A stretch of 13,650 bases of DNA, from UHGV virus genome UHGV-0359675; one strand, 5' to 3'. The stretch's first letter is position 1, and the number at the start of each line of letters is the position of its first letter. Positions 3,934-13,650 of the stretch are shown here, in pieces. The notes under the pieces are model-generated. The model saw only the letters and a list, made by a program, of their open reading frames with translations, ran no database searches and was not told the origin of the DNA. A program made the translations under genes and the position numbers. This stretch comes from a virus.

Positions 3934-4106
3934 TTCCTCGCGCGATGTCTTAGCCACCGGATATCCCACAGGTGAGCCGTGTAGTTGAAGGTTTTTACGT
4001 CAGATTCTTTTGGGATTGGCTTGCGTTTATTTCTGGAGCGTTTCGTTGGAAGGTATTTGCAGTTTTCGCAGATGATGTCGGTGATACTTCGTCGCTGTCG
4101 TCTCAT
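3930..4106 (-). CDS. ninE: NinE
   Basis: Internal Met of the 78-aa track ORF gives [58 protein letters not shown], matching recalled lambda NinE. The start at 4106..4104 overlaps the NinB stop in ATGA. Confidence 0.75.
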
Positions 4107-4543
4107 GCCGCCCTGTCTCCCCATCGCGCTTTCCATTCGAGAGCCAGTCGCGCTTCGTCTGACCACTTAACGCCACGCTCTGTACCGAATGCCTGTATAA
4201 GCTCTAATAGCTCCGCAAATTCGTTTACACGCATCCTGCTGGTTGACTGGCCTATTACCACAAAGCCATTCCCGGCAAGGTTAGGAACAACATCCTGCTG
4301 CTTTAATGCTGCGGTAAACACACACTTCCAGCTTTCTGCATCCAGCCAGCGACCATGCCATTCAACCTGACGAGAGACGTCACCAAGGCAAGCCCAAAGC
4401 TTTCGATTCTGGTCTAAGCTGCGGTTGCGTTCCTGAATGGTTACTACGATTGGTTTGGTTGGGTCTGGAAGGATTTGCTGTACTGCGTGAATAGCGTTTT
4501 GCTGATGTGCTGGAGATCGAATTTCAAAGGTTAGTTTTTTCAT
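4103..4543 (-). CDS. ninB: NinB (recombination protein, Orf family)
   Basis: 146 aa [55 protein letters not shown]... is essentially identical to recalled lambda NinB. Confidence 0.85.
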
Positions 4544-4817: not shown

Positions 4818-6194
4818 TCATACGTCCGCCCCTTGTGCATATCGTCTGCCACGCGCAGCAGGCGCATTTGATGCTGTGCAAATCTGTCTGGCTTCATCCT
4901 GGTCACATGCAACAAAGTGTCCGTTGCAGAACCGCTGGTAAACCGTACCAAGTGAGCCAAAACGGTTTTTCGTCACAATGATTTCAGCAAATGGCGCGGC
5001 GCTACTGTTCTCGTCATATACCGCTTCCCGATAGAGCATGATGATTGAGTCTGCGTCCTGTTCAATGCTTCCTGAATCACGCAAATCTGCGTTTGTCGGG
5101 CGTTTGTTTGGTCGCTTCTCAACATCGCGTGAAAGCTGACTTAGGGAGATAACAGGCGTTTTCAGGTCTTTCGCCATCGCCTTAAGGCTTCCTGAGATGT
5201 GGGCAATTGCGAGGTCGTTGCGATCTGCTTTCGGCTTCTCAATCAGGCCAAGATAATCCGCCATGATGAGTGACAGGTTTGGATTTTCCTGTTTGTGTCG
5301 TTCTGCGATTGAGCGTATTTCTTCGACCGATAACCGCGAGGCATCGACTACCCATACATCCAAATCTGCAAGCTGACTCATGCCGTTAGCAACACGCGCC
5401 CAGCCTTCGTCATCCATCGATGCAGGATTTCGCAGTACGCTAACCGACATCCTCCCGGCGTTGGCAATGCTTCGCTCTGCAATCTGCAATGCGCTCATTT
5501 CCATTGAGAAAATCAATACCCCGCGCCGGACGTCAGAACCAGGAATAACGCGGCTTGCAACGCCTTCGGCAATCTTCAGCGCCAGCTCGGTTTTCCCCAT
5601 ACCAGGACGAGCAGCGATTATCACCAGGTCTTCTGCGTTCATCCCTCCGGTGATGGCATCAAGTTCTTCGATTCCGGTCTTCAGGGTATCGGACTCTTCT
5701 CCGTTCCTCAGACGCCTGTCAAGCGTGTCAGTGTAGTCAGTAATGATTTCCCCTAACCGTACAGGTTTAACCTCGTCACGGGGCTTTCTGATGGCTGAAA
5801 GACGCTTTACAAGCTCATCCATCGCCTGACTCGATGCGTCGATGGTTCCGCTCTGAATTGGTTCACGCATTTCATCCATGATTTCCAGCACCAGACGGCG
5901 GTGATAGTTATCCGCGACCATTCCGGCATATCCCTTCAGGTTTGCGGCACTCGGGCAGTTTTTGCTGGTCATCAGGATTGCGGTGAAATGCTCCTCTCCG
6001 CACGCCTCGGCAACCATCAGCGCGTCGATTAGGTTTCTGTTTCTCGCCTGCTTGCGAATAACCTCGAAGGCTTTCCGGTAGAGCGGAATTGAAAACGCTT
6101 CCGGCTCCAGCGTTGCAAGAACGTCACTGGCGGTTGGAGTTAATCCACCAATCAGCAGGCCACCGATAACGCTCGCTTCGATATCCTGTCTCAT
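4818..6194 (-). CDS. Replicative DNA helicase, DnaB family (phage P-function analogue, P22 gp12-like)
   Basis: 458 aa with Walker [13 protein letters not shown] and DnaB-like C-terminal RecA-fold motifs. ATGA overlap with the upstream O-like gene. Confidence 0.88.
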
Positions 6195-7138
6195 GCAATC
6201 CCCCTGTCTGCAAACTTCCCTTCCCGAACTCCCGTTAACGAGTCTTCTCTCAGCAGGTAATCAAAATCAGCCGTCCAGCCCGTGTCGTTGTCTCCGAAGT
6301 AAAACGGCTTGGCCTGATGCACAAACGCCCTGACATACGCTCTGAAACCGTCCACGTTTGGCGTTTTCAGTTGCGGGATGATTTTCTTCAGGCGGCGTTT
6401 TCGTTTCTCGTTGACCGCAACAGCGTGTGGCAGTCTGTCACCGACTTCGGTGTTGTAGGCGTTCAGGAAGGATTCGTAGTCGATTCGTTCTGCCTTGCGA
6501 CGTTCAGGTTTAACCTGCCCATCGCCTCCCCCATTGGGGGGTAGGGGGGTATTATTTATATTCTTGTTAATACCTTCTTGTTCATGATGTGCGGTTGTTT
6601 GTGCGGCTTCATGTGCGCTTTCATGTGCGGCATGTACGCTGAAAGCCGCGCTATTGCTGGCTTCATCATGTGCGGCATCATGTGCGGTTGTTTGTGCGGC
6701 TTCATGTGCGGGTAAATTGTCCATTTTTTGAGCATATTCATGGTAATTTGTGATGGTTATCACACGGCCTTTTTGCTTCTCTCCATCAATGGAGATCATC
6801 CCCTCTTTCACAAAAACCTGAAGCATCCGCTCAACCTGATCACGGCTTGCTGGCTTGCCATGTCTGTCGCATAACTGAAGACCTAAATCAGCTGCTGTCA
6901 CAACCAGTTGACCGGGTTGCAGATGCCATTCATGACCTTTGAAATTCGCTTTGTATGGCTTTCTGGCGGCATTCAGGAGAAGGTTATCCCACAGGGTGCG
7001 AAGATAAACATCTTTCGCCCATGACTGTTTCAGAATGCTCCGGTACAACGGAATGTAACCAGTTTTCTGGTTCTCCATCCTGTTGCTCCTGCGCTCGTGT
7101 GCGGCGCTGAAATCGTAGATTTTTGCTGTATTGCTCAT
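6191..7138 (-). CDS. Replication initiator, O-like, with a His/Ala-rich repeat linker
   Basis: 315 aa. Position between cII and the helicase, and a central low-complexity linker ([16 protein letters not shown]...) encoded by the DNA repeat array, match the organisation of lambda O with its internal ori. Confidence 0.75.
6551..6711. repeat. Candidate origin of replication: 12-bp-periodic direct repeats (core TGTGCGG) in two clusters plus an adjacent AT-rich block
   Basis: Core TGTGCGG at 6588, 6600, 6624 and at 6669, 6681, 6693, 6705, with variants at 6612 and 6633. Each cluster has exact 12-bp phasing. AT-rich TATTATTTATATTCTTGTTAATA at 6551-6575 lies on the gene-downstream side, as in lambda ori. 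Confidence 0.5.
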
Positions 7139-7140
7139 AA

Positions 7141-7413
7141 CTACCTGCCTTGACGAAAGACCTTAAGAACATCGTTAAACTGACTTACGGATATGTCTTC
7201 TTTGAGAAGCTTTTCCAGAAATGCGTTTGGAATGAACGTATATCCCTCCTCTTTTGGTAGAGACGGGAGCAACGCCCTCGCCTCAGCCTTCAGAAGCTCA
7301 GTTCTGGCAACTTTCACAAAAGAGATTTGAGTTCTTTCATCAATGGAACGAAGGAAGCGCAAACGCTTAGCTTCTTTGTGTGTATCAGGTGGATTAAAGC
7401 CTTTGTTTCGCAT
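7141..7413 (-). CDS. Hypothetical 90-aa protein between cII and the O-like gene
   Basis: Start at the internal Met (MRNKGFNPPDTHKEAKRLRF...) has a GAGGT Shine-Dalgarno 7 nt upstream. The longer 181-aa track ORF overlaps cII out of frame and is rejected. No family recognised. Confidence 0.45.
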   Translation of the reverse strand: MRNKGFNPPDTHKEAKRLRFLRSIDERTQISFVKVARTELLKAEARALLPSLPKEEGYTFIPNAFLEKLLKEDISVSQFNDVLKVFRQGR

Positions 7414-7424
7414 ATAATTACCTC

Positions 7425-7490
7425 GTTGGATGTTGTTAAAATTCCATTTGTATTTGATCAGAACGCTCGGTTGCCGCCGGGCGTTTTTTA
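7425..7490 (+). ncRNA. oop: oop-like antisense RNA with toop terminator, overlapping the cII 3' end
   Basis: Perfect -10 TATAAT at 7413-7418 on the + strand. Terminator CGCTCGG-ttgccg-CCGGGCG then TTTTTTATT at 7464-7492, inside the cII 3' end and antisense to it. This is the lambda oop/toop arrangement; the sequence matches my recollection of lambda toop. Confidence 0.5.
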
Positions 7491-7729
7491 TTGGTGAGAA
7501 TCGAAGCAACTTGTCGTGCCAATCGAGCCATGTCGTCGTCGACAACACCCCATTCAAGAACAGCAAGCAGCATTGAGAACTTTGGAATCCAGTCCCTCTT
7601 CCACCTGCTGATCTGCGACTTATCAACGCCCACAGCTTCCGCTGTCTTCTCAGTTCCAAGCATTGCGATTTTGTTAAGCAACGCACTCTCGATTCTTAGA
7701 GCCTCGTTGCGTTTGTTTGCACGAACCAT
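7436..7729 (-). CDS. cII: Transcriptional activator CII (lambda-type)
   Basis: From the internal Met: MVRANKRNEALRIESALLNKIAMLGTEKTAEAVGVDKSQISRWKRDWIPKFSMLLAVLEWGVVDDDMARLARQVA.ILTNKKRPAATERS.QIQMEF, matching recalled lambda CII (97 aa). Shine-Dalgarno AAGGA is upstream. Confidence 0.9.
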   Translation of the reverse strand: MVRANKRNEALRIESALLNKIAMLGTEKTAEAVGVDKSQISRWKRDWIPKFSMLLAVLEWGVVDDDMARLARQVASILTNKKRPAATERSDQIQMEF

Positions 7730-7745
7730 ATGTAAGTATTTCCTT
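7707..7745 (+). promoter_or_regulatory. pRE-like promoter with CII-binding direct repeat TTGC-N6-TTGC
   Basis: TTGC (7707-7710), GTTTGT, TTGC (7717-7720) on the + strand, straddling the cII start and oriented toward cro/c2. This is the classic lambda pRE -35 architecture. Confidence 0.6.
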
Positions 7746-7785
7746 AACAAATAAGAAGTTATGCGCATCAACTTATGCGCGTTGT

Positions 7786-7831
7786 ATTCCCGCATTTCGG
7801 CGGGAATGAGGACCATGACTGTTAAAGAGCA
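7786..7831 (-). promoter_or_regulatory. nutR: boxA (TGCTCTTTAACA) plus boxB hairpin
   Basis: Minus sense: boxA TGCTCTTTAACA (7831..7820), a near-consensus rrn-type boxA. boxB ATTCCCGC-cgaaat-GCGGGAAT (7807..7786). Lies between the cro stop and cII start. The same boxB core recurs upstream of N. Confidence 0.6.
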
Positions 7832-7837
7832 ATTTGC

Positions 7838-8023
7838 TTATGCCGCTTTGCGGTAAGCGCTTTCTTGATACTTCAGGGCGCCAGCTGTAACGACTTCCAG
7901 TCGATAGGCGTCTTTCTCTGGGATGACTTCCTTCCACTGAGAGACTGCTGCGTCGCTAATGCCTAACGCTTTAGCTACAGCACGCTGGGTTCCGAAGTGG
8001 TCGATAACATCTTTCTTGTACAT
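7838..8023 (-). CDS. cro: Cro repressor (P22-type)
   Basis: 61 aa MYKKDVIDHFGTQRAVAKALGISDAAVSQWKEVIPEKDAYRLE.VTAGALKYQE.AYR.AA matches recalled P22 Cro. Divergent from the repressor gene across the operator region. Confidence 0.85.
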   Translation of the reverse strand: MYKKDVIDHFGTQRAVAKALGISDAAVSQWKEVIPEKDAYRLEVVTAGALKYQESAYRKAA

Positions 8024-8038
8024 AGACTCGCCCCGAAA

Positions 8039-8103
8039 TTAAAGAACACTTAAATTATCCACTAAAGGAATCTTAAGTCAAGTTTATTTAAGATGTCTTA
8101 ACT
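8039..8103. promoter_or_regulatory. OR operator region: three 18-bp P22-type operators with divergent pR and pRM
   Basis: Sites ATTAAAGAACACTTAAAT (8039-8056), ACTAAAGGAATCTTAAGT (8062-8079), ATTTAAGATGTCTTAACT (8086-8103), spaced 23-24 bp centre to centre. Minus-strand pR: -35 TTGACT (8081..8076), 16-nt spacer, -10 GATAAT (8059..8054). The c2 ATG at 8104 abuts the third operator with no Shine-Dalgarno, suggesting a leaderless pRM transcript. Confidence 0.7.
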
Positions 8104-8754
8104 ATGAAAACTCAATTGATGGGAGAGCGCATTCGCGCTCGGAGAAAAGAACTCAAGATCAGGCAGGCCGCACTTGGAAAGATGGTCGGCGTGTCTAATG
8201 TTGCCATATCTCAGTGGGAACGCTCTGAGACAGAGCCAAATGGAGAGAATCTTCTCGCCCTGGCTAATGCGTTGAAGTGTTCCCCTGACTATCTGATGAA
8301 AGGAGAGGAAAGTCTTTCAAACATTGCCTATCACAGTAGGCATGATCCAAGAGGGTCATACCCTCTGATTAGCTGGGTGAGCGCAGGATGCTGGATGGAA
8401 GCTGTAGAACCATATCATAAGCGTGCAATAGATAACTGGTACGATACAACCGTAGACTGTTCAGAAGATTCGTTTTGGTTGGACGTGAAGGGAGACTCAA
8501 TGACGGCTCCGGCCGGTCTCAGTATCCCTGAAGGAATGATAATACTCGTCGATCCTGAAGTAGAGCCGCGTAACGGGAAACTGGTAGTTGCAAAGCTCGA
8601 AGGAGAAAACGAGGCAACTTTCAAGAAGTTAGTTATTGATGCAGGCAGGAAGTTTCTAAAACCACTTAACCCACAATATCCGATGATCGAGATCAACGGA
8701 AACTGCAAAATCATCGGCGTAGTTGTCGATGCAAAACTAGCAAACCTTCCATAA
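8104..8754 (+). CDS. c2: Prophage repressor C2/CI (HTH N-terminal domain, LexA-like S24 autocleavage C-terminal domain)
   Basis: 216 aa, near-identical to recalled P22 C2 (MxTQLMGERIRARRK.LKIRQAALGKMVGVSNVAISQWERSETEPNGENLLAL...). GDSM serine motif and the downstream Lys are present. Confidence 0.9.
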   Translation: MKTQLMGERIRARRKELKIRQAALGKMVGVSNVAISQWERSETEPNGENLLALANALKCSPDYLMKGEESLSNIAYHSRHDPRGSYPLISWVSAGCWMEAVEPYHKRAIDNWYDTTVDCSEDSFWLDVKGDSMTAPAGLSIPEGMIILVDPEVEPRNGKLVVAKLEGENEATFKKLVIDAGRKFLKPLNPQYPMIEINGNCKIIGVVVDAKLANLP

Positions 8755-8779
8755 GGGGGCATTCGCCCCTTTTTTTTTA
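8755..8779 (+). terminator. Intrinsic terminator downstream of the repressor gene
   Basis: GGGGC-attc-GCCCC followed by TTTTTTTTTAT immediately after the c2 stop codon. Confidence 0.6.
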
Positions 8780-8821
8780 TTTCCTTTAAAAATCAAAGCT
8801 AAACTTAAGTTACGAAAGAAA

Positions 8822-8875
8822 ATTTAAGTTTTCTTCAAAAATACTCTTGACCATTAATTAAAGAGATCTTAAATT
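8822..8875 (+). promoter_or_regulatory. OL operators and pL promoter
   Basis: Operator-like 18-mers ATTTAAGTTTTCTTCAAA (8822-8839) and ATTAAAGAGATCTTAAAT (8857-8874). -35 TTGACC (8847-8852), 17-nt spacer, -10 TAAATT (8870-8875), directed toward nutL and N. Confidence 0.55.
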
Positions 8876-8920
8876 TAAGCCATCAGCAGGACGCTGGAAG
8901 CCAAACGGAAAAGATTGGCA

Positions 8921-8962
8921 GGCTCTTTAACATTGATGGGATTGTCCCGCCGAAATGCGGGA
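8921..8962 (+). promoter_or_regulatory. nutL: boxA (GGCTCTTTAACA) plus boxB hairpin
   Basis: boxA-like GGCTCTTTAACA at 8921-8932. boxB TCCCGC-cgaaat-GCGGGA at 8945-8962, sharing the 19-nt core TCCCGCCGAAATGCGGGAA with nutR in transcript sense. Confidence 0.6.
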
Positions 8963-9275
8963 ACCAAAGAGTAGTTGGCTTTGGGGTGACGTGAAGTGCA
9001 GCTGCACGACGGCAACCGGAAGATAAGCACCCGGCGCGTCACCGCCAAAGTCAATTCCATAGGCGTTATGCAGCCGCCACCATATTCAAGAAAGCTGCAC
9101 AAGAGGTAGGAGGATTTATGTGAATACTTACATTCAATTGAGAGATTAATTAAATAGAACTGATCGAGCAGAGTCCATAAAGGCTCATAAATGCTCTTCC
9201 ATCCCCGTCTAATTGGCGGGGAAGGAAACCACTTTGTAATAAAAAAATTCCAAAGTTGTTTCATCGGAGGTCAAC

Positions 9276-9575
9276 ATGACAGTAGTCATTACATATCTGG
9301 CTGACGATAACGCCAGAAATCGCCGCAGAGCACGCAGACAGGCTCAACGTGAACAGGCAATGCAAGAACAGCGACTGGCGCGAAAGATTGCGCTAAAGCT
9401 CTCTGGTTGCGTCAGAGCAGACAAAGCAGCATCACTCGGAAGCCTTCGCTGCAAGAAGGCAGAAGAAGTCGAGAGTAAACAGAATCGTATTTACTACCGC
9501 AAGCCACGCAGTGAAATGGGGGTGACTTGTGTTGGTCGCCAGAAAATGAAATTAGGAAGCAAACCACTTATTTGA
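9276..9575 (+). CDS. N: Antitermination protein N (lambda/21-type C terminus, distinct arginine-rich motif)
   Basis: 99 aa. N-terminal arginine-rich motif NARNRRRARRQAQREQ. C-terminal ...NRIYYRKPRSEMGVTCVGRQKMKLGSKPLI parallels recalled lambda N (...RTWYSKPGERGITCSGRQKIKGKSIPLI). Shine-Dalgarno GGAGG upstream. Confidence 0.8.
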   Translation: MTVVITYLADDNARNRRRARRQAQREQAMQEQRLARKIALKLSGCVRADKAASLGSLRCKKAEEVESKQNRIYYRKPRSEMGVTCVGRQKMKLGSKPLI

Positions 9576-9583
9576 GGTGATAT

Positions 9584-9670
9584 ATGGAAGAAGAATTTGA
9601 AGAGTTCGAAGAGCATCCGCAGGATGTGATGGAACAATACCAGGACTATCCTTATGACTACGACTATTGA
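9584..9670 (+). CDS. Candidate 28-aa highly acidic micro-protein (MEEEFEEFEEHPQDVMEQYQDYPYDYDY)
   Basis: Strong Shine-Dalgarno GAGGTG 5 nt upstream, overlapping the N stop. Hand-translated; below the 60-aa ORF-track cutoff. The same 17-nt initiation region recurs at 9904-9920. Confidence 0.35.
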   Translation: MEEEFEEFEEHPQDVMEQYQDYPYDYDY

Positions 9671-9854
9671 TAAGAATCAATGGTGTGGACAATTCAAGCG
9701 ATGCAATGGATGCAAGCTGCAATCGGAATGTATGGTTAAGCCTGAAGAAATGTTTCCTGTAATGGAAGATGGGAAATATGTCGATAAATGGGCAATACGA
9801 ACGACGGCAATGATTGCCAGAGAACTTAGTAAACAGAATAACAAGGCTGCCTGA
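9654..9854 (+). CDS. ral: Restriction-alleviation protein Ral-like
   Basis: 66 aa MTTTIDKNQWCGQFKRCNGCKLQSECMVKPEEMFPVMEDGKYVDKWAIRTTAMIARELSKQNNKAA matches my recollection of lambda Ral (66 aa). Position just downstream of N in the pL operon fits. Confidence 0.55.
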   Translation: MTTTIDKNQWCGQFKRCNGCKLQSECMVKPEEMFPVMEDGKYVDKWAIRTTAMIARELSKQNNKAA

Positions 9855-9912
9855 TGGTGGCCTTTATTTTTGTCCGTAAATAATTTCATGCTTATTACAA
9901 TCAAGGTGATAT

Positions 9913-10335
9913 ATGGAAGAACAAGCAAACAAGATTCTCGTAGAACTTCTGCAAAAAGCCAGTAATGGAATAGACGCGGCTGTTTCATTTAGCCAGGCAC
10001 AGATTCCTGATGTTGTTCGTCAGTTGCTAACATGGAGTTTTGTCCATAGCGCACTTTTCCAAGTGGCTGGGTTGTTGCTTTTAATTGCAGCAATGAAACT
10101 TCCTAGTTTTGCAAGAACGGCAAGAAATAATGGCGAGAGATGGACGTCTTTAGATGGATGTCCAAACGATAGATATTTTATATCTTCGTTTTATTACGAT
10201 ATATGCACTGTATTTGCTCCTATATTTGGCTCAATTATTGGCGTTTTAATTATTGCCTTCAATTTCGAATGGTTGAAGATTTGGCTTGCACCTAAGTTAT
10301 TCCTAATTGAATATGCAGCATCATTGGTTAAGTAA
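9913..10335 (+). CDS. Hypothetical 140-aa membrane protein with two predicted TM helices; possible superinfection-exclusion function (positional inference only)
   Basis: Hydrophobic segments SFVHSALFQVAGLLLLIAAMKL and FAPIFGSIIGVLIIAFNFEWLKIW. Follows ral, where lambda and P22 carry sieB. An intrinsic terminator follows at 10340-10366. Confidence 0.5.
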   Translation: MEEQANKILVELLQKASNGIDAAVSFSQAQIPDVVRQLLTWSFVHSALFQVAGLLLLIAAMKLPSFARTARNNGERWTSLDGCPNDRYFISSFYYDICTVFAPIFGSIIGVLIIAFNFEWLKIWLAPKLFLIEYAASLVK

Positions 10336-10339
10336 TTTC

Positions 10340-10366
10340 AGGCCGCATAGTCGGCCTTTATTTTTG
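10340..10366 (+). terminator. Intrinsic terminator after the membrane-protein gene
   Basis: AGGCCG-catagt-CGGCCT followed by TTATTTTTGG. Confidence 0.55.
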
Positions 10367-10484
10367 GCATAAACAACAGAATAAACACTGCACTGTGTAT
10401 TCATTCCAACGAGTGAATACACGGAGCAATGTCGCTCGTAACTAAACAGGAGCCGACTTGTTCTGATTGTTGGAAATCTTCTTT

Positions 10485-10512
10485 GCCCTCCAGTGTGAGG
10501 GCAATTTTTTTT
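10485..10512 (+). terminator. Intrinsic terminator immediately upstream of the 10525 gene start
   Basis: GCCCTC-cagtgt-GAGGGC followed by AATTTTTTTT, ending 13 nt before the GGAGG Shine-Dalgarno and ATG at 10525. Confidence 0.6.
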
Positions 10513-10524
10513 GATGGAGGATAT

Positions 10525-10875
10525 ATGAGTGAAGTAACAGATTTAGTTGTTATTGAAAAAGCAAATGCAATGACTGTATTTCAGTCTGCCGACCAGATTG
10601 AAGAAATTCTCCAAAAGGTTGAACGTGAAGTTATGTCATTTGTGCCTGATATCACAACGGCAAAGGGCAGAAAGGAGATCGCTTCTCTGGCGTATAAAGT
10701 TGCGCAGACGAAAACATATCTCGATGGTCTTGGCAAAGACCTTGTTGCTGAACTGAAGGAAATTCCAAAGCTAATTGATGCCAACCGCAAGACAGTGCGC
10801 GATCGCCTTGATGAACTGAAAGCCAAGGCGCGCCAGCCTCTTACTGATTATGAGGAAGAATCAGGCGCGGATTAA
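10525..10875 (+). CDS. Hypothetical 116-aa protein (predicted helical/coiled-coil)
   Basis: Start chosen at the internal Met with Shine-Dalgarno GGAGG (MSEVTDLVVIEKANAMTVF...). The upstream in-frame extension of the track ORF (from 10429) runs through the terminator and is rejected. Confidence 0.55.
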   Translation: MSEVTDLVVIEKANAMTVFQSADQIEEILQKVEREVMSFVPDITTAKGRKEIASLAYKVAQTKTYLDGLGKDLVAELKEIPKLIDANRKTVRDRLDELKAKARQPLTDYEEESGAD

Positions 10876-11494
10876 AGCCGAAGAAGAAGCTAAGGCAGCA
10901 GCTGAAGCTCTCGCAAAGCAAATTGAGTCTGACCATGAAATAGCGATTTTGATGGATCGCGAATTTGACCGCCAAAGAGAAGAGGCAAGACTCAAAGCGG
11001 AGCAGGAAAAGCGAGAGCATGAAGAACGATTAAAAAGAGAAGCTGAAGAGAAAGCCAGAGCAGAAGCCGAAGCAAAGGCAAAAGCCGAAATTGAAGCAGC
11101 AGCAAGGCGAGAAGCAGAAGCTAAGGCCGCAGCGGAACGTGCAGAGCGTGAACGCATTGAAGCCGAGCAACGAGCACAGCGCGAAGCAAAAGAGGCAGCA
11201 GAACGAGCTGAAAGAGAAAAGCAGGCAGCAATTGAAGCAGAACGCAGAAAAGCACAGGAGGAGGCTGAACGAATCCGTCGCGAGGCTGAAGCAAAAGAGC
11301 AAGCCAGAATAGCAGAAGAAAAAAGAATCAAGGACGAAGAAGAGCGTAGAGCAAAGGATAAAGCTCACCGGAAAGAAGTAAATAACAAAATACTTGCTGA
11401 CCTTATCAAGGTTGGCGCATCAGAAGATGTTGCTAAAAATATCATAACAGCCATCGTAAAAGGCGAAGTATTCGCAACAAAAATAACCTACTAA
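10850..11494 (+). CDS. Hypothetical 214-aa protein with a long E/R/K/A-rich predicted single alpha-helix or coiled-coil and a short C-terminal domain
   Basis: Overlaps the preceding ORF by 26 nt in the +1 frame with no obvious Shine-Dalgarno. About 150 residues of EAEAKAKAE / REAEAKAAAERAERE-type repeats. The start is uncertain; this may be a frameshifted continuation of the upstream ORF. Confidence 0.5.
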   Translation: MRKNQARIKAEEEAKAAAEALAKQIESDHEIAILMDREFDRQREEARLKAEQEKREHEERLKREAEEKARAEAEAKAKAEIEAAARREAEAKAAAERAERERIEAEQRAQREAKEAAERAEREKQAAIEAERRKAQEEAERIRREAEAKEQARIAEEKRIKDEEERRAKDKAHRKEVNNKILADLIKVGASEDVAKNIITAIVKGEVFATKITY

Positions 11495-11519
11495 TAAAAC
11501 CAACATAAGGAACCACCCA

Positions 11520-13650
<2,131 letters not shown>

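Follow-up and report, generated by a model that had tools for sequence, protein, structure and literature searches.

PHROG 3054: a widespread family of two-pass phage membrane proteins with conserved ends, represented in the early-left operon of a CUS-3-type prophage

Most of the small early or accessory inner-membrane proteins of phages that have been characterised are exclusion proteins, for example T4 Imm and Sp, P22 SieA and HK97 gp15. Imm and Sp are early products of a virulent phage. Lambda RexB is another phage-encoded inner-membrane protein, belonging to the immunity region and involved in exclusion; it has four transmembrane (TM) helices, is transcribed from pRM in lysogens, and requires RexA. 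SieA stops DNA entry at the inner membrane (PMC10883804), and HK97 gp15 is the product of a single-gene moron (PMC3594210). SieB, a protein of 184-192 amino acids (aa) in lambda and P22, is encoded in the lambdoid N-ral-cIII region and is predicted to be membrane-associated. Its exclusion is of the abortive-infection type, ending the lytic growth of lambdoid phages that superinfect a lysogen. The gene considered here lies in that same region of a 13,650-nucleotide (nt) stretch of viral DNA, UHGV virus genome UHGV-0359675 (the window). It occupies 9913-10335 on the + strand and encodes a 140-aa protein. That this is a two-pass membrane protein, that it belongs to the family PHROG 3054, and that it is not SieB are close to certain.

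A sequence-only reading of the window had placed the gene behind ral, which is correct (it starts 59 nt past the ral stop, and ral itself matches its Pfam model with E=4e-48), and had taken this for the slot of sieB, which it is not. In lambda, sieB (34482-35036, +) lies between N and ral, antiparallel to the pL operon, and the gene that comes after ral is ea10. P22 sieB is also found on the opposite strand, between gene 24 (the N gene) and ral, with its own annotated promoter; there ral is followed by orf78, orf87 and gene 17, with an annotated terminator after gene 17. The N-ral gap of the window is 78 nt long and contains only an orf28-like peptide, and no SieB homologue was found anywhere in the window. 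A homologue of the 140-aa gene adjoins sieB in the Salmonella phages SPN9CC and Oslo. All of 80 related lambdoid loci from IMG/VR have the gene on the N strand, between N, ral or sieB and ea10, a gp33-like gene, gp17 or cIII, and in these loci it co-occurs with sieB, ea10 or gp17 in various combinations. Since it co-occurs with each of these in some mosaics, it is not an allele of any of them. Lambda Ea10 and P22 gp17 share its operon position (ral to cIII), gene 17 also having its terminator on the 3' side. However, BLASTP detected no similarity to either protein, and gp17, as judged by reading its sequence, lacks any hydrophobic stretch.

The protein is likewise not recognisable as SieB, a homology that the sequence-only reading had been unable to confirm. 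It has no match at E<=1 in Pfam, which presumably includes a SieB model. BLASTP gave E=67 against lambda SieB and E=0.029, over 24 residues, against P22 SieB, and hhalign of the family profile with a four-member SieB alignment gave a probability of 0.5%. The profile comparison that had been proposed with other exclusion families, here SieA and RexB, also showed no relation (probability 0.3% in each case). SieA, Imm, Sp and gp15 do resemble the 140-aa protein in being small, phage-encoded, accessory and integral to the inner membrane, and RexB shares with it a phage origin and an inner-membrane location; SieA, unlike it, has three predicted TM helices. No exclusion-annotated PHROG or PADLOC family was matched, with Imm, Sp and gp15 not compared directly. 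The closest likeness is to the Sf6 'gene 34 protein' and CUS-3 ECRS218_0047, which have the same length class, two helices, end motifs and place in the pL operon, with no difference noted; these belong to the protein's own family.

The open reading frame (ORF) runs from an ATG at 9913 to a TAA at 10333-10335. The Shine-Dalgarno sequence AAGGTGA (9903-9909, from sequence reading) lies three bases 5' of the ATG and is kept as AAGGTGATAT or GAGGGTAAGG in homologous loci. The product is 100% identical to CUS-3 ECRS218_0047. Compared with a 75%-identical homologue, the ratio of nonsynonymous to synonymous substitution rates (dN/dS) is 0.10 overall at a dS of 1.5, with 0.06 for the two ends of the protein and 0.15 for its core; against the homologue of locus L032, dN is 0.09 for the two ends combined and 0.22 for the core. 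A chance ORF is ruled out by the dN/dS of 0.10. These values show that the ORF is a genuine gene of a CUS-3-type P22-like prophage and is under purifying selection.

The description of the product as a small two-helix membrane protein with a soluble N-terminal part stands. Kyte-Doolittle windows of 19 residues exceed 1.6 only at residues ~40-67 and ~95-126 (the latter stretch including one sub-threshold window), with none in residues 1-39. From an alignment of 56 sequences, AlphaFold2 predicts a helical hairpin, with a predicted local distance difference test score (pLDDT) of 71 in all and ~80-88 over the two hydrophobic helices. Three segments can be distinguished. The N-terminal region (aa 1-45; 9913-10047), a helix, contains invariant or near-invariant alignment columns and ends in F..QIP[DE]V..QLL.W, conserved across Escherichia, Vibrio, Pseudomonas, phi92-like and N4-like phages (alignments A1 and A2). 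Its third codon positions are no more than 45-50% identical, although the peptide is conserved. The variable core (aa 46-118; 10048-10266) comprises, by hydropathy, TM1 (~41-63), a loop (~64-95) and TM2 (~96-118). The last 22 residues (aa 119-140; 10267-10332) form an amphipathic segment with the family motif [WT]L[KQ]I..APK[LV][YFW]L[IL]E[YF]A..L[IV]K, conserved from Escherichia to Vibrio and Pseudomonas phages; for the 140-aa protein the motif is WLKIWLAPKL[YF]LIEYAASLVK. The protein thus carries both family motifs, QIP[DE]V..QLL.W before TM1 and APK[LV][YFW]L[IL]E[YF]A after TM2. Because there are two TM helices, both conserved ends should lie on the same side of the membrane.

The contrast between ends and core is unusual. 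Between several allele classes the end segments are only 40-60% identical at third codon positions, yet the peptides are nearly identical, so the conservation reflects selection and not recent recombination. The TM1-loop-TM2 core, for its part, falls into at least seven length classes that cannot be aligned (120, 121, 128, 135, 140, 141 and 149 aa) among close enterobacterial relatives.

PHROG 3054, a family of unknown function, is matched over its full length (E=8e-52, residues 1-140 on profile positions 1-137 of 137). The 140-aa protein has no NCBIfam match and no match in PADLOC-DB v2 at E<=10, and the family profile found only connexin TM noise at E>3 among PDB sequences. A profile search of 1.84 billion representatives returned 3,743 clusters at 50% identity, 1,725 of them at E<=1e-10; clustering at 90% left 472 homologues. 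The usual size of a family member is about 110-185 aa. The best 150 representatives listed are all stand-alone proteins of ~70-185 aa, matched over essentially their full length, and none is a domain fusion. Two TM helices are predicted for 134 of 148 diverse representatives. Sources name these proteins 'hypothetical protein', 'phage transmembrane protein' or, for Sf6, 'gene 34 protein'. Literature searches on Sf6 gene 34, phrog_3054 and the pL genes of CUS-3 and P22-like phages returned nothing relevant, nor did searches for the family among small membrane exclusion proteins or anti-defence accessory genes.

The gene is present in 180 genomes of the phage collection. Its carriers include temperate P22-like and HK97-like phages, the N4-like phage FSL SP-058, the phi92-like phage alia and about a dozen relatives, many Vibrio phages of 37-130 kb (one of 129 kb), and Bjorn-like Pseudomonas podophages. 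We take the N4-like and phi92-like phages to be strictly virulent. The gene is absent from lambda and P22 and present in CUS-3, Sf6-like phages, HK633 and SPN9CC. E. coli phage HK633 (Hendrixvirinae, siphoviruses by our assumption) and Salmonella phage SPN9CC, which is P22-like, carry one and the same 121-aa allele. In HK633 (L002, 3691-4366) the annotation is split into HK633_045 and HK633_044, with an intact 121-aa member at 4001-4366; the C-terminal part of HK633_045 runs across the terminator and intergenic region in another frame, and this reading is probably an annotation artefact.

The neighbours of the gene change from phage to phage. In the lambdoid pL context these are ral, sieB, ea10, gp17 and cIII. 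In the N4-like, phi92-like, 129-kb Vibrio and Bjorn-like phages, the gene stands amid early or replication-side genes. It adjoins a DUF2800 PD-(D/E)XK nuclease gene in Vibrio 1.194.O, precedes genes for an AAA ATPase, a CapR/T5orf172 protein and a NADAR protein in alia, and follows the RNA polymerase II genes of FSL SP-058, ahead of a gene for a collagen/YadA-anchor protein. It is found with ParB-like, Macro, N6/N4 methyltransferase and integrase genes in locus L095, with ParB and sliding clamp genes in K1M, near a methylase and NAMPT in S4-7, beside a large methyltransferase and SSB in L103, and beside DUF3560 in L101. In five Bjorn-like contigs it stands at the end of the early genes and is followed by a GATase/amidoligase cluster. 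No partner gene proved to be conserved over the roughly ten independent phage contexts. In Vibrio phage K366 (L098, 3912-4436) a lone family gene lies antiparallel among tail-sheath and neck genes, with an extended -10 element TGnTATAGT (TGTTATAGT) upstream and a bidirectional terminator downstream. There the gene is plainly an independent transcription unit, in a textbook moron arrangement. These contexts show that gene and terminator behave as a mobile single-gene cassette across many phages.

Two of the contexts contain further features. In FSL SP-058 (L009) the gene directly downstream (5427-6416), annotated 'tail protein', encodes collagen triple-helix repeats and a YadA-like outer-membrane anchor, and its product resembles a trimeric autotransporter made by the phage rather than a part of the virion. 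In Bjorn-like loci (L092-L094, L100, L102, L011) the order is family gene, an ORF of ~75-80 aa, an ORF of ~300 aa, and then the Peptidase_C26, GATase_6-7, COOH-NH2 ligase and Amidoligase_2 genes.

As the sequence-only reading had it, the 140-aa gene is closed by a terminator. This intrinsic terminator (10340-10365, +) begins 4 nt past the stop with the stem-loop AGGCCG-CATAGT-CGGCCT (10340-10357), which is followed by TTATTTTT. Its folding energy of -9.7 kcal/mol (z = -1.9 versus shuffles) is modest taken alone. The terminator is clearly real, because in 63 of 65 distinct lambdoid contexts the stop has a hairpin and a T-run behind it, because the paired stem changes on both sides among these contexts (GGCC/GGCC to GGAC/GTCC), and because at least four unrelated hairpin sequences are found at this position. 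The terminator on the other side of the gene (9843-9864, +; scan and folding) overlaps the end of ral, is followed by TATTTTTG, and separates ral from the 140-aa gene. It is strong (-14.2 kcal/mol, z = -3.2). Many lambdoid loci have an identical hairpin, 48-49 nt ahead of the gene, and some upstream terminator is present in 35 of the 65 contexts.

The gene lies ~1 kb downstream of a candidate pL promoter and nutL site on the same strand. The promoter, TTGACC-17-TAAATT (8847-8875, +), was found by consensus scan with a 9/12 match; it lies between cI (8104-8754, +) and N (9276-9575, +), and its assignment as pL follows from a position that fits. The candidate nutL, from pattern search and sequence reading, comprises a boxA-like GGCTCTTTA (8921-8929, +) and a boxB-like hairpin TCCCGC-CGAAAT-GCGGGA (8945-8962, +), and would act as its counterpart does in lambda. 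A boxA-like TGCTCTTTA matching that of nutL is found on the - strand at 7823-7831, directly downstream of cro. The N gene matches PHROG 271, 'anti-termination protein N-like' (E=1e-36), and is labelled N in the CUS-3 annotation. Because the 140-aa gene is downstream of nutL and N and behind the ral-end terminator, its product would be made only upon N antitermination. By analogy with lambda tL1 and tL2 and the P22 gene 17 terminator, the flanking terminators are read as part of the design of an N-dependent pL operon. The gene is most likely an N-dependent delayed-early gene, rather than one expressed in the lysogen. A consensus scan for sigma-70 sites found nothing promoter-like in the 48-nt gap 5' of the ORF, and none on the + strand before the family gene of SPN9CC, which there comes after sieB. 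The hexamer most like a -10 element, TACAAT at 9896-9901, has no -35 partner and, on reading the sequence, would start transcription within or past the Shine-Dalgarno sequence. Upstream sequences vary among mosaics, and thus there is no conserved promoter.

The following explanation is proposed. The gene would be transcribed from pL, and its product would appear with N antitermination only, that is, as a delayed-early protein after infection or induction and not in the quiescent lysogen. The protein would insert in the inner membrane as a helical hairpin, with the conserved end segments on one side probably forming a working surface for self-association or for binding a conserved partner. Its role may be an accessory one at the cell envelope during lytic development, in conflict with other phages or with the host. 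The most plausible form of this would be a block on entry of a secondary phage, as with T4 Imm and Sp or P22 SieA, and the next most plausible would be neutralisation of a membrane-acting host defence. Exclusion of a secondary infection during the lytic programme is the best single guess, and a weak one, with a probability of about 0.3. It is preferred because exclusion is what most characterised proteins of this general kind do. Threads common to the contexts are an early or accessory site, carriage by both virulent and temperate phages, and cassette-like mobility; the gene is also frequently near genes of anti-restriction or counter-defence type (Ral, N6/N4 methyltransferases, Macro, NADAR, NAMPT and sieB). 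An interface in conflict would also fit the pattern of constrained ends around a hypervariable membrane core.

Several observations weigh against this explanation. The association with such neighbours is anecdotal. Being early and in the membrane does not single out exclusion, because the gene content of phage early regions is varied. None of the libraries or papers searched assigns a function to any family member, and structure searches (Foldseek against BFVD included) returned only uncharacterised phage proteins or generic helical hairpins. AlphaFold2 confidence is low for the conserved ends (pLDDT 47-65; N-terminal helix ~50, C-terminal helices ~60), so the idea of a working surface draws on conservation and not on the model. 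The topology is also ambiguous. In 134 diverse members, counts of Lys plus Arg over 15-residue flanks point to a cytoplasmic loop (4.3 versus 2.0), and members with short loops have acidic loops of 8-12 residues, so that the positive-inside rule gives contradictory answers for short-loop and long-loop members. As for expression, a consensus promoter scan is insensitive and leaves room for a weak or non-sigma-70 lysogen promoter, and terminators on both sides of a gene are the expected look of a moron.

A rather unlikely alternative is counter-defence, in which an early membrane protein neutralises a membrane-acting host or prophage defence, such as a Rex-like or other pore-forming abortive-infection effector. 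T4 provides a precedent, its rII proteins countering lambda Rex. Lambdoid pL neighbours are largely counter-defence genes (ral, abc2, and P22 gene 17, with the annotation 'allows growth on phage Fels2 lysogen'), and elsewhere the gene is at most three genes from N6/N4 methyltransferases (S4-7, L095, L103), Macro (L095), NADAR (alia) and NAMPT (S4-7). Presence in virulent phages and early expression fit as well. However, this association is anecdotal, and many neighbours are unrelated to defence, such as the amidoligase cluster, the DUF2800 nuclease, the YadA-anchor protein and the sliding clamp. To our knowledge, few characterised counter-defence proteins are integral membrane proteins, and no homology to any of them was found.

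It is similarly doubtful that the protein is a factor for host physiology or phage development with no role in conflict, for example one that tethers replication or recombination complexes to the membrane or regulates them, one that alters membrane potential or cell division, or one that sets lysis timing. The gene does adjoin replication and recombination genes in several phages, among them the DUF2800 nuclease of 1.194.O, the AAA ATPase of alia, the sliding clamp and ParB of K1M and the SSB of L103. It shares the pL operon with kil, cIII and erf, and its conserved ends suggest a conserved partner, possibly from the host. In contrast, the contexts have no conserved partner gene, lambda and P22 lack the gene and so show it to be dispensable, the lysis cassette of the window is elsewhere (a lambda S-like holin ORF at 427-750, -), and the core varies too freely for a precise structural role.

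The exclusion or abortive-infection factor that the sequence-only reading had suggested would, in its lysogen-expressed form, be a moron with its own weak promoter and a product made by the resting prophage, protecting the lysogen by superinfection exclusion or abortive infection. This is disfavoured, and quite improbable. The gene does have the look of a moron: it is bracketed by the terminators at 9843-9864 and 10340-10357, it is patchy among collinear relatives, and its GC content is atypical (~36-40% versus 44-49% upstream in cI-N), though that of ral is also ~40%. The K366 homologue is clearly transcribed independently, and known prophage exclusion proteins such as SieA and HK97 gp15 are small inner-membrane proteins (PMC10883804, PMC3594210). 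Against this stand the absence of a promoter-like site in the 48-nt gap and in SPN9CC, the unsuitable position of TACAAT, and the variable upstream sequences. There was no PADLOC match, and the family is common in N4-like and phi92-like phages which, if virulent as we assume, have no lysogen to protect.

That the protein is a SieB homologue or a truncated SieB, for which nothing speaks beyond the general N-ral-cIII location and a membrane protein, is refuted by sequence, by strand and position, and by the joint occurrence of the gene with sieB in SPN9CC, Oslo and IMG/VR mosaics, and retains practically no probability. Some other function takes up the rest of the probability.

Two other candidates were rejected. 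A class II (two-TM) holin, which would be expressed late from a lysis cassette with endolysin and spanins, does not agree with a gene in the early-left operon, with the holin ORF found elsewhere in the window, or with the lack of any holin PHROG or Pfam match. A type I toxin would be expected to have fewer than ~60 aa, versus 140 aa here, and the antisense match that might be paired with it is only sub-threshold. This match, to the Rfam family of the enterobacterial small RNA STnc230, is on the - strand at 9832-9912; its 27 bits fall short of the gathering score of 50 (E=0.046, search over 301 nt). It covers the entire ral-ORF intergenic region, antisense to the ribosome-binding site of the ORF, and owes most of its score to the terminator hairpin, which could work in both directions. 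No - strand promoter was seen for it, and no literature on STnc230 was found.

The window is the early region of a P22-like/lambdoid prophage. Positions 4913-11696 are 99.97% identical to phage CUS-3 (CP000711), and the 921 bases surrounding the ORF (9600-10520) are identical in the E. coli sequence type 95 strains UTI89 and NU14. Between N and the 140-aa gene are the orf28-like ORF (28 aa; 9584-9670, +) and ral, for restriction alleviation (9654-9854, +; Pfam PF11058, full length). The 28-aa peptide, MEEEFEEFEEHPQDVMEQYQDYPYDYDY, is highly acidic, and its ORF overlaps the start of ral as lambda orf28 does. Its ribosome-binding site and start, AGGTGATATATGGAAGAA (9576-9593), recur as an exact 18/18 repeat at the start of the 140-aa gene (9904-9921). 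Recombination 'boundary sequences' are annotated in CUS-3, and the repeat may be one of these in kind. A 129-aa ORF (8875-9264, -), antisense between the candidate pL/nutL and N, corresponds to the hypothetical protein UTI89_RS28850 of the Prokaryotic Genome Annotation Pipeline (PGAP) and overlaps the CUS-3 boundary sequence bsq5; it may not be a real gene.

Downstream of the 140-aa gene, a further terminator-like hairpin (10483-10504) lies just 5' of an Sf6 gp33-like gene (10525-11494, +), which is followed by cIII. This gene (PHROG 1376; intact at 300 aa in HK633) is frameshifted into two overlapping ORFs, 10525-10875 and 10850-11494, and encodes a coiled region extremely rich in Glu, Ala, Lys and Arg. 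The UTI89 copy is labelled by PGAP as a 'TolA, frameshifted' pseudogene. The split form is common, since PHROGs keeps a separate family for each half. An IS21-family element is inserted in kil at 11696/11697 and fills the window from 11697 to 13650 (istA 11783-12805, istB 12802-13584). Since the collinear sequence of CUS-3 and UTI89 runs on through kil, the insertion has cost this prophage copy its Kil and severed it from its recombination genes.

The presence of the gene is not new in itself, as it is catalogued as a hypothetical protein of CUS-3 and of uropathogenic E. coli strains such as UTI89 and NU14. The family is large yet untouched, with ~3,700 clusters at 50% identity and no Pfam model, solved structure or experiment. 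Its conservation is unusual in that ends under strong purifying selection surround an interchangeable membrane core. Travel of the gene with its own terminator is unusual as well. If the protein acts in neither exclusion nor counter-defence, it would be an ordinary accessory ORF. Tentatively, PHROG 3054 may represent a class of inner-membrane proteins for phage conflict that is very widespread but was not recognised before, acting in superinfection exclusion or in inhibition of membrane-acting defences. The gene-plus-terminator cassette would then move between temperate and virulent phages of Enterobacteria, Vibrio and Pseudomonas, with an N- and C-terminal 'handle' carrying the activity and the exchangeable TM-loop-TM core setting its specificity. 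Given its size and its odd pattern of conservation, the family is a reasonable choice for a simple plating screen. If a role in exclusion or counter-defence is true, the family would be a common new one for the biology of phage-phage and phage-host conflict, and would account for one recurrent unknown gene of the lambdoid early-left operon.

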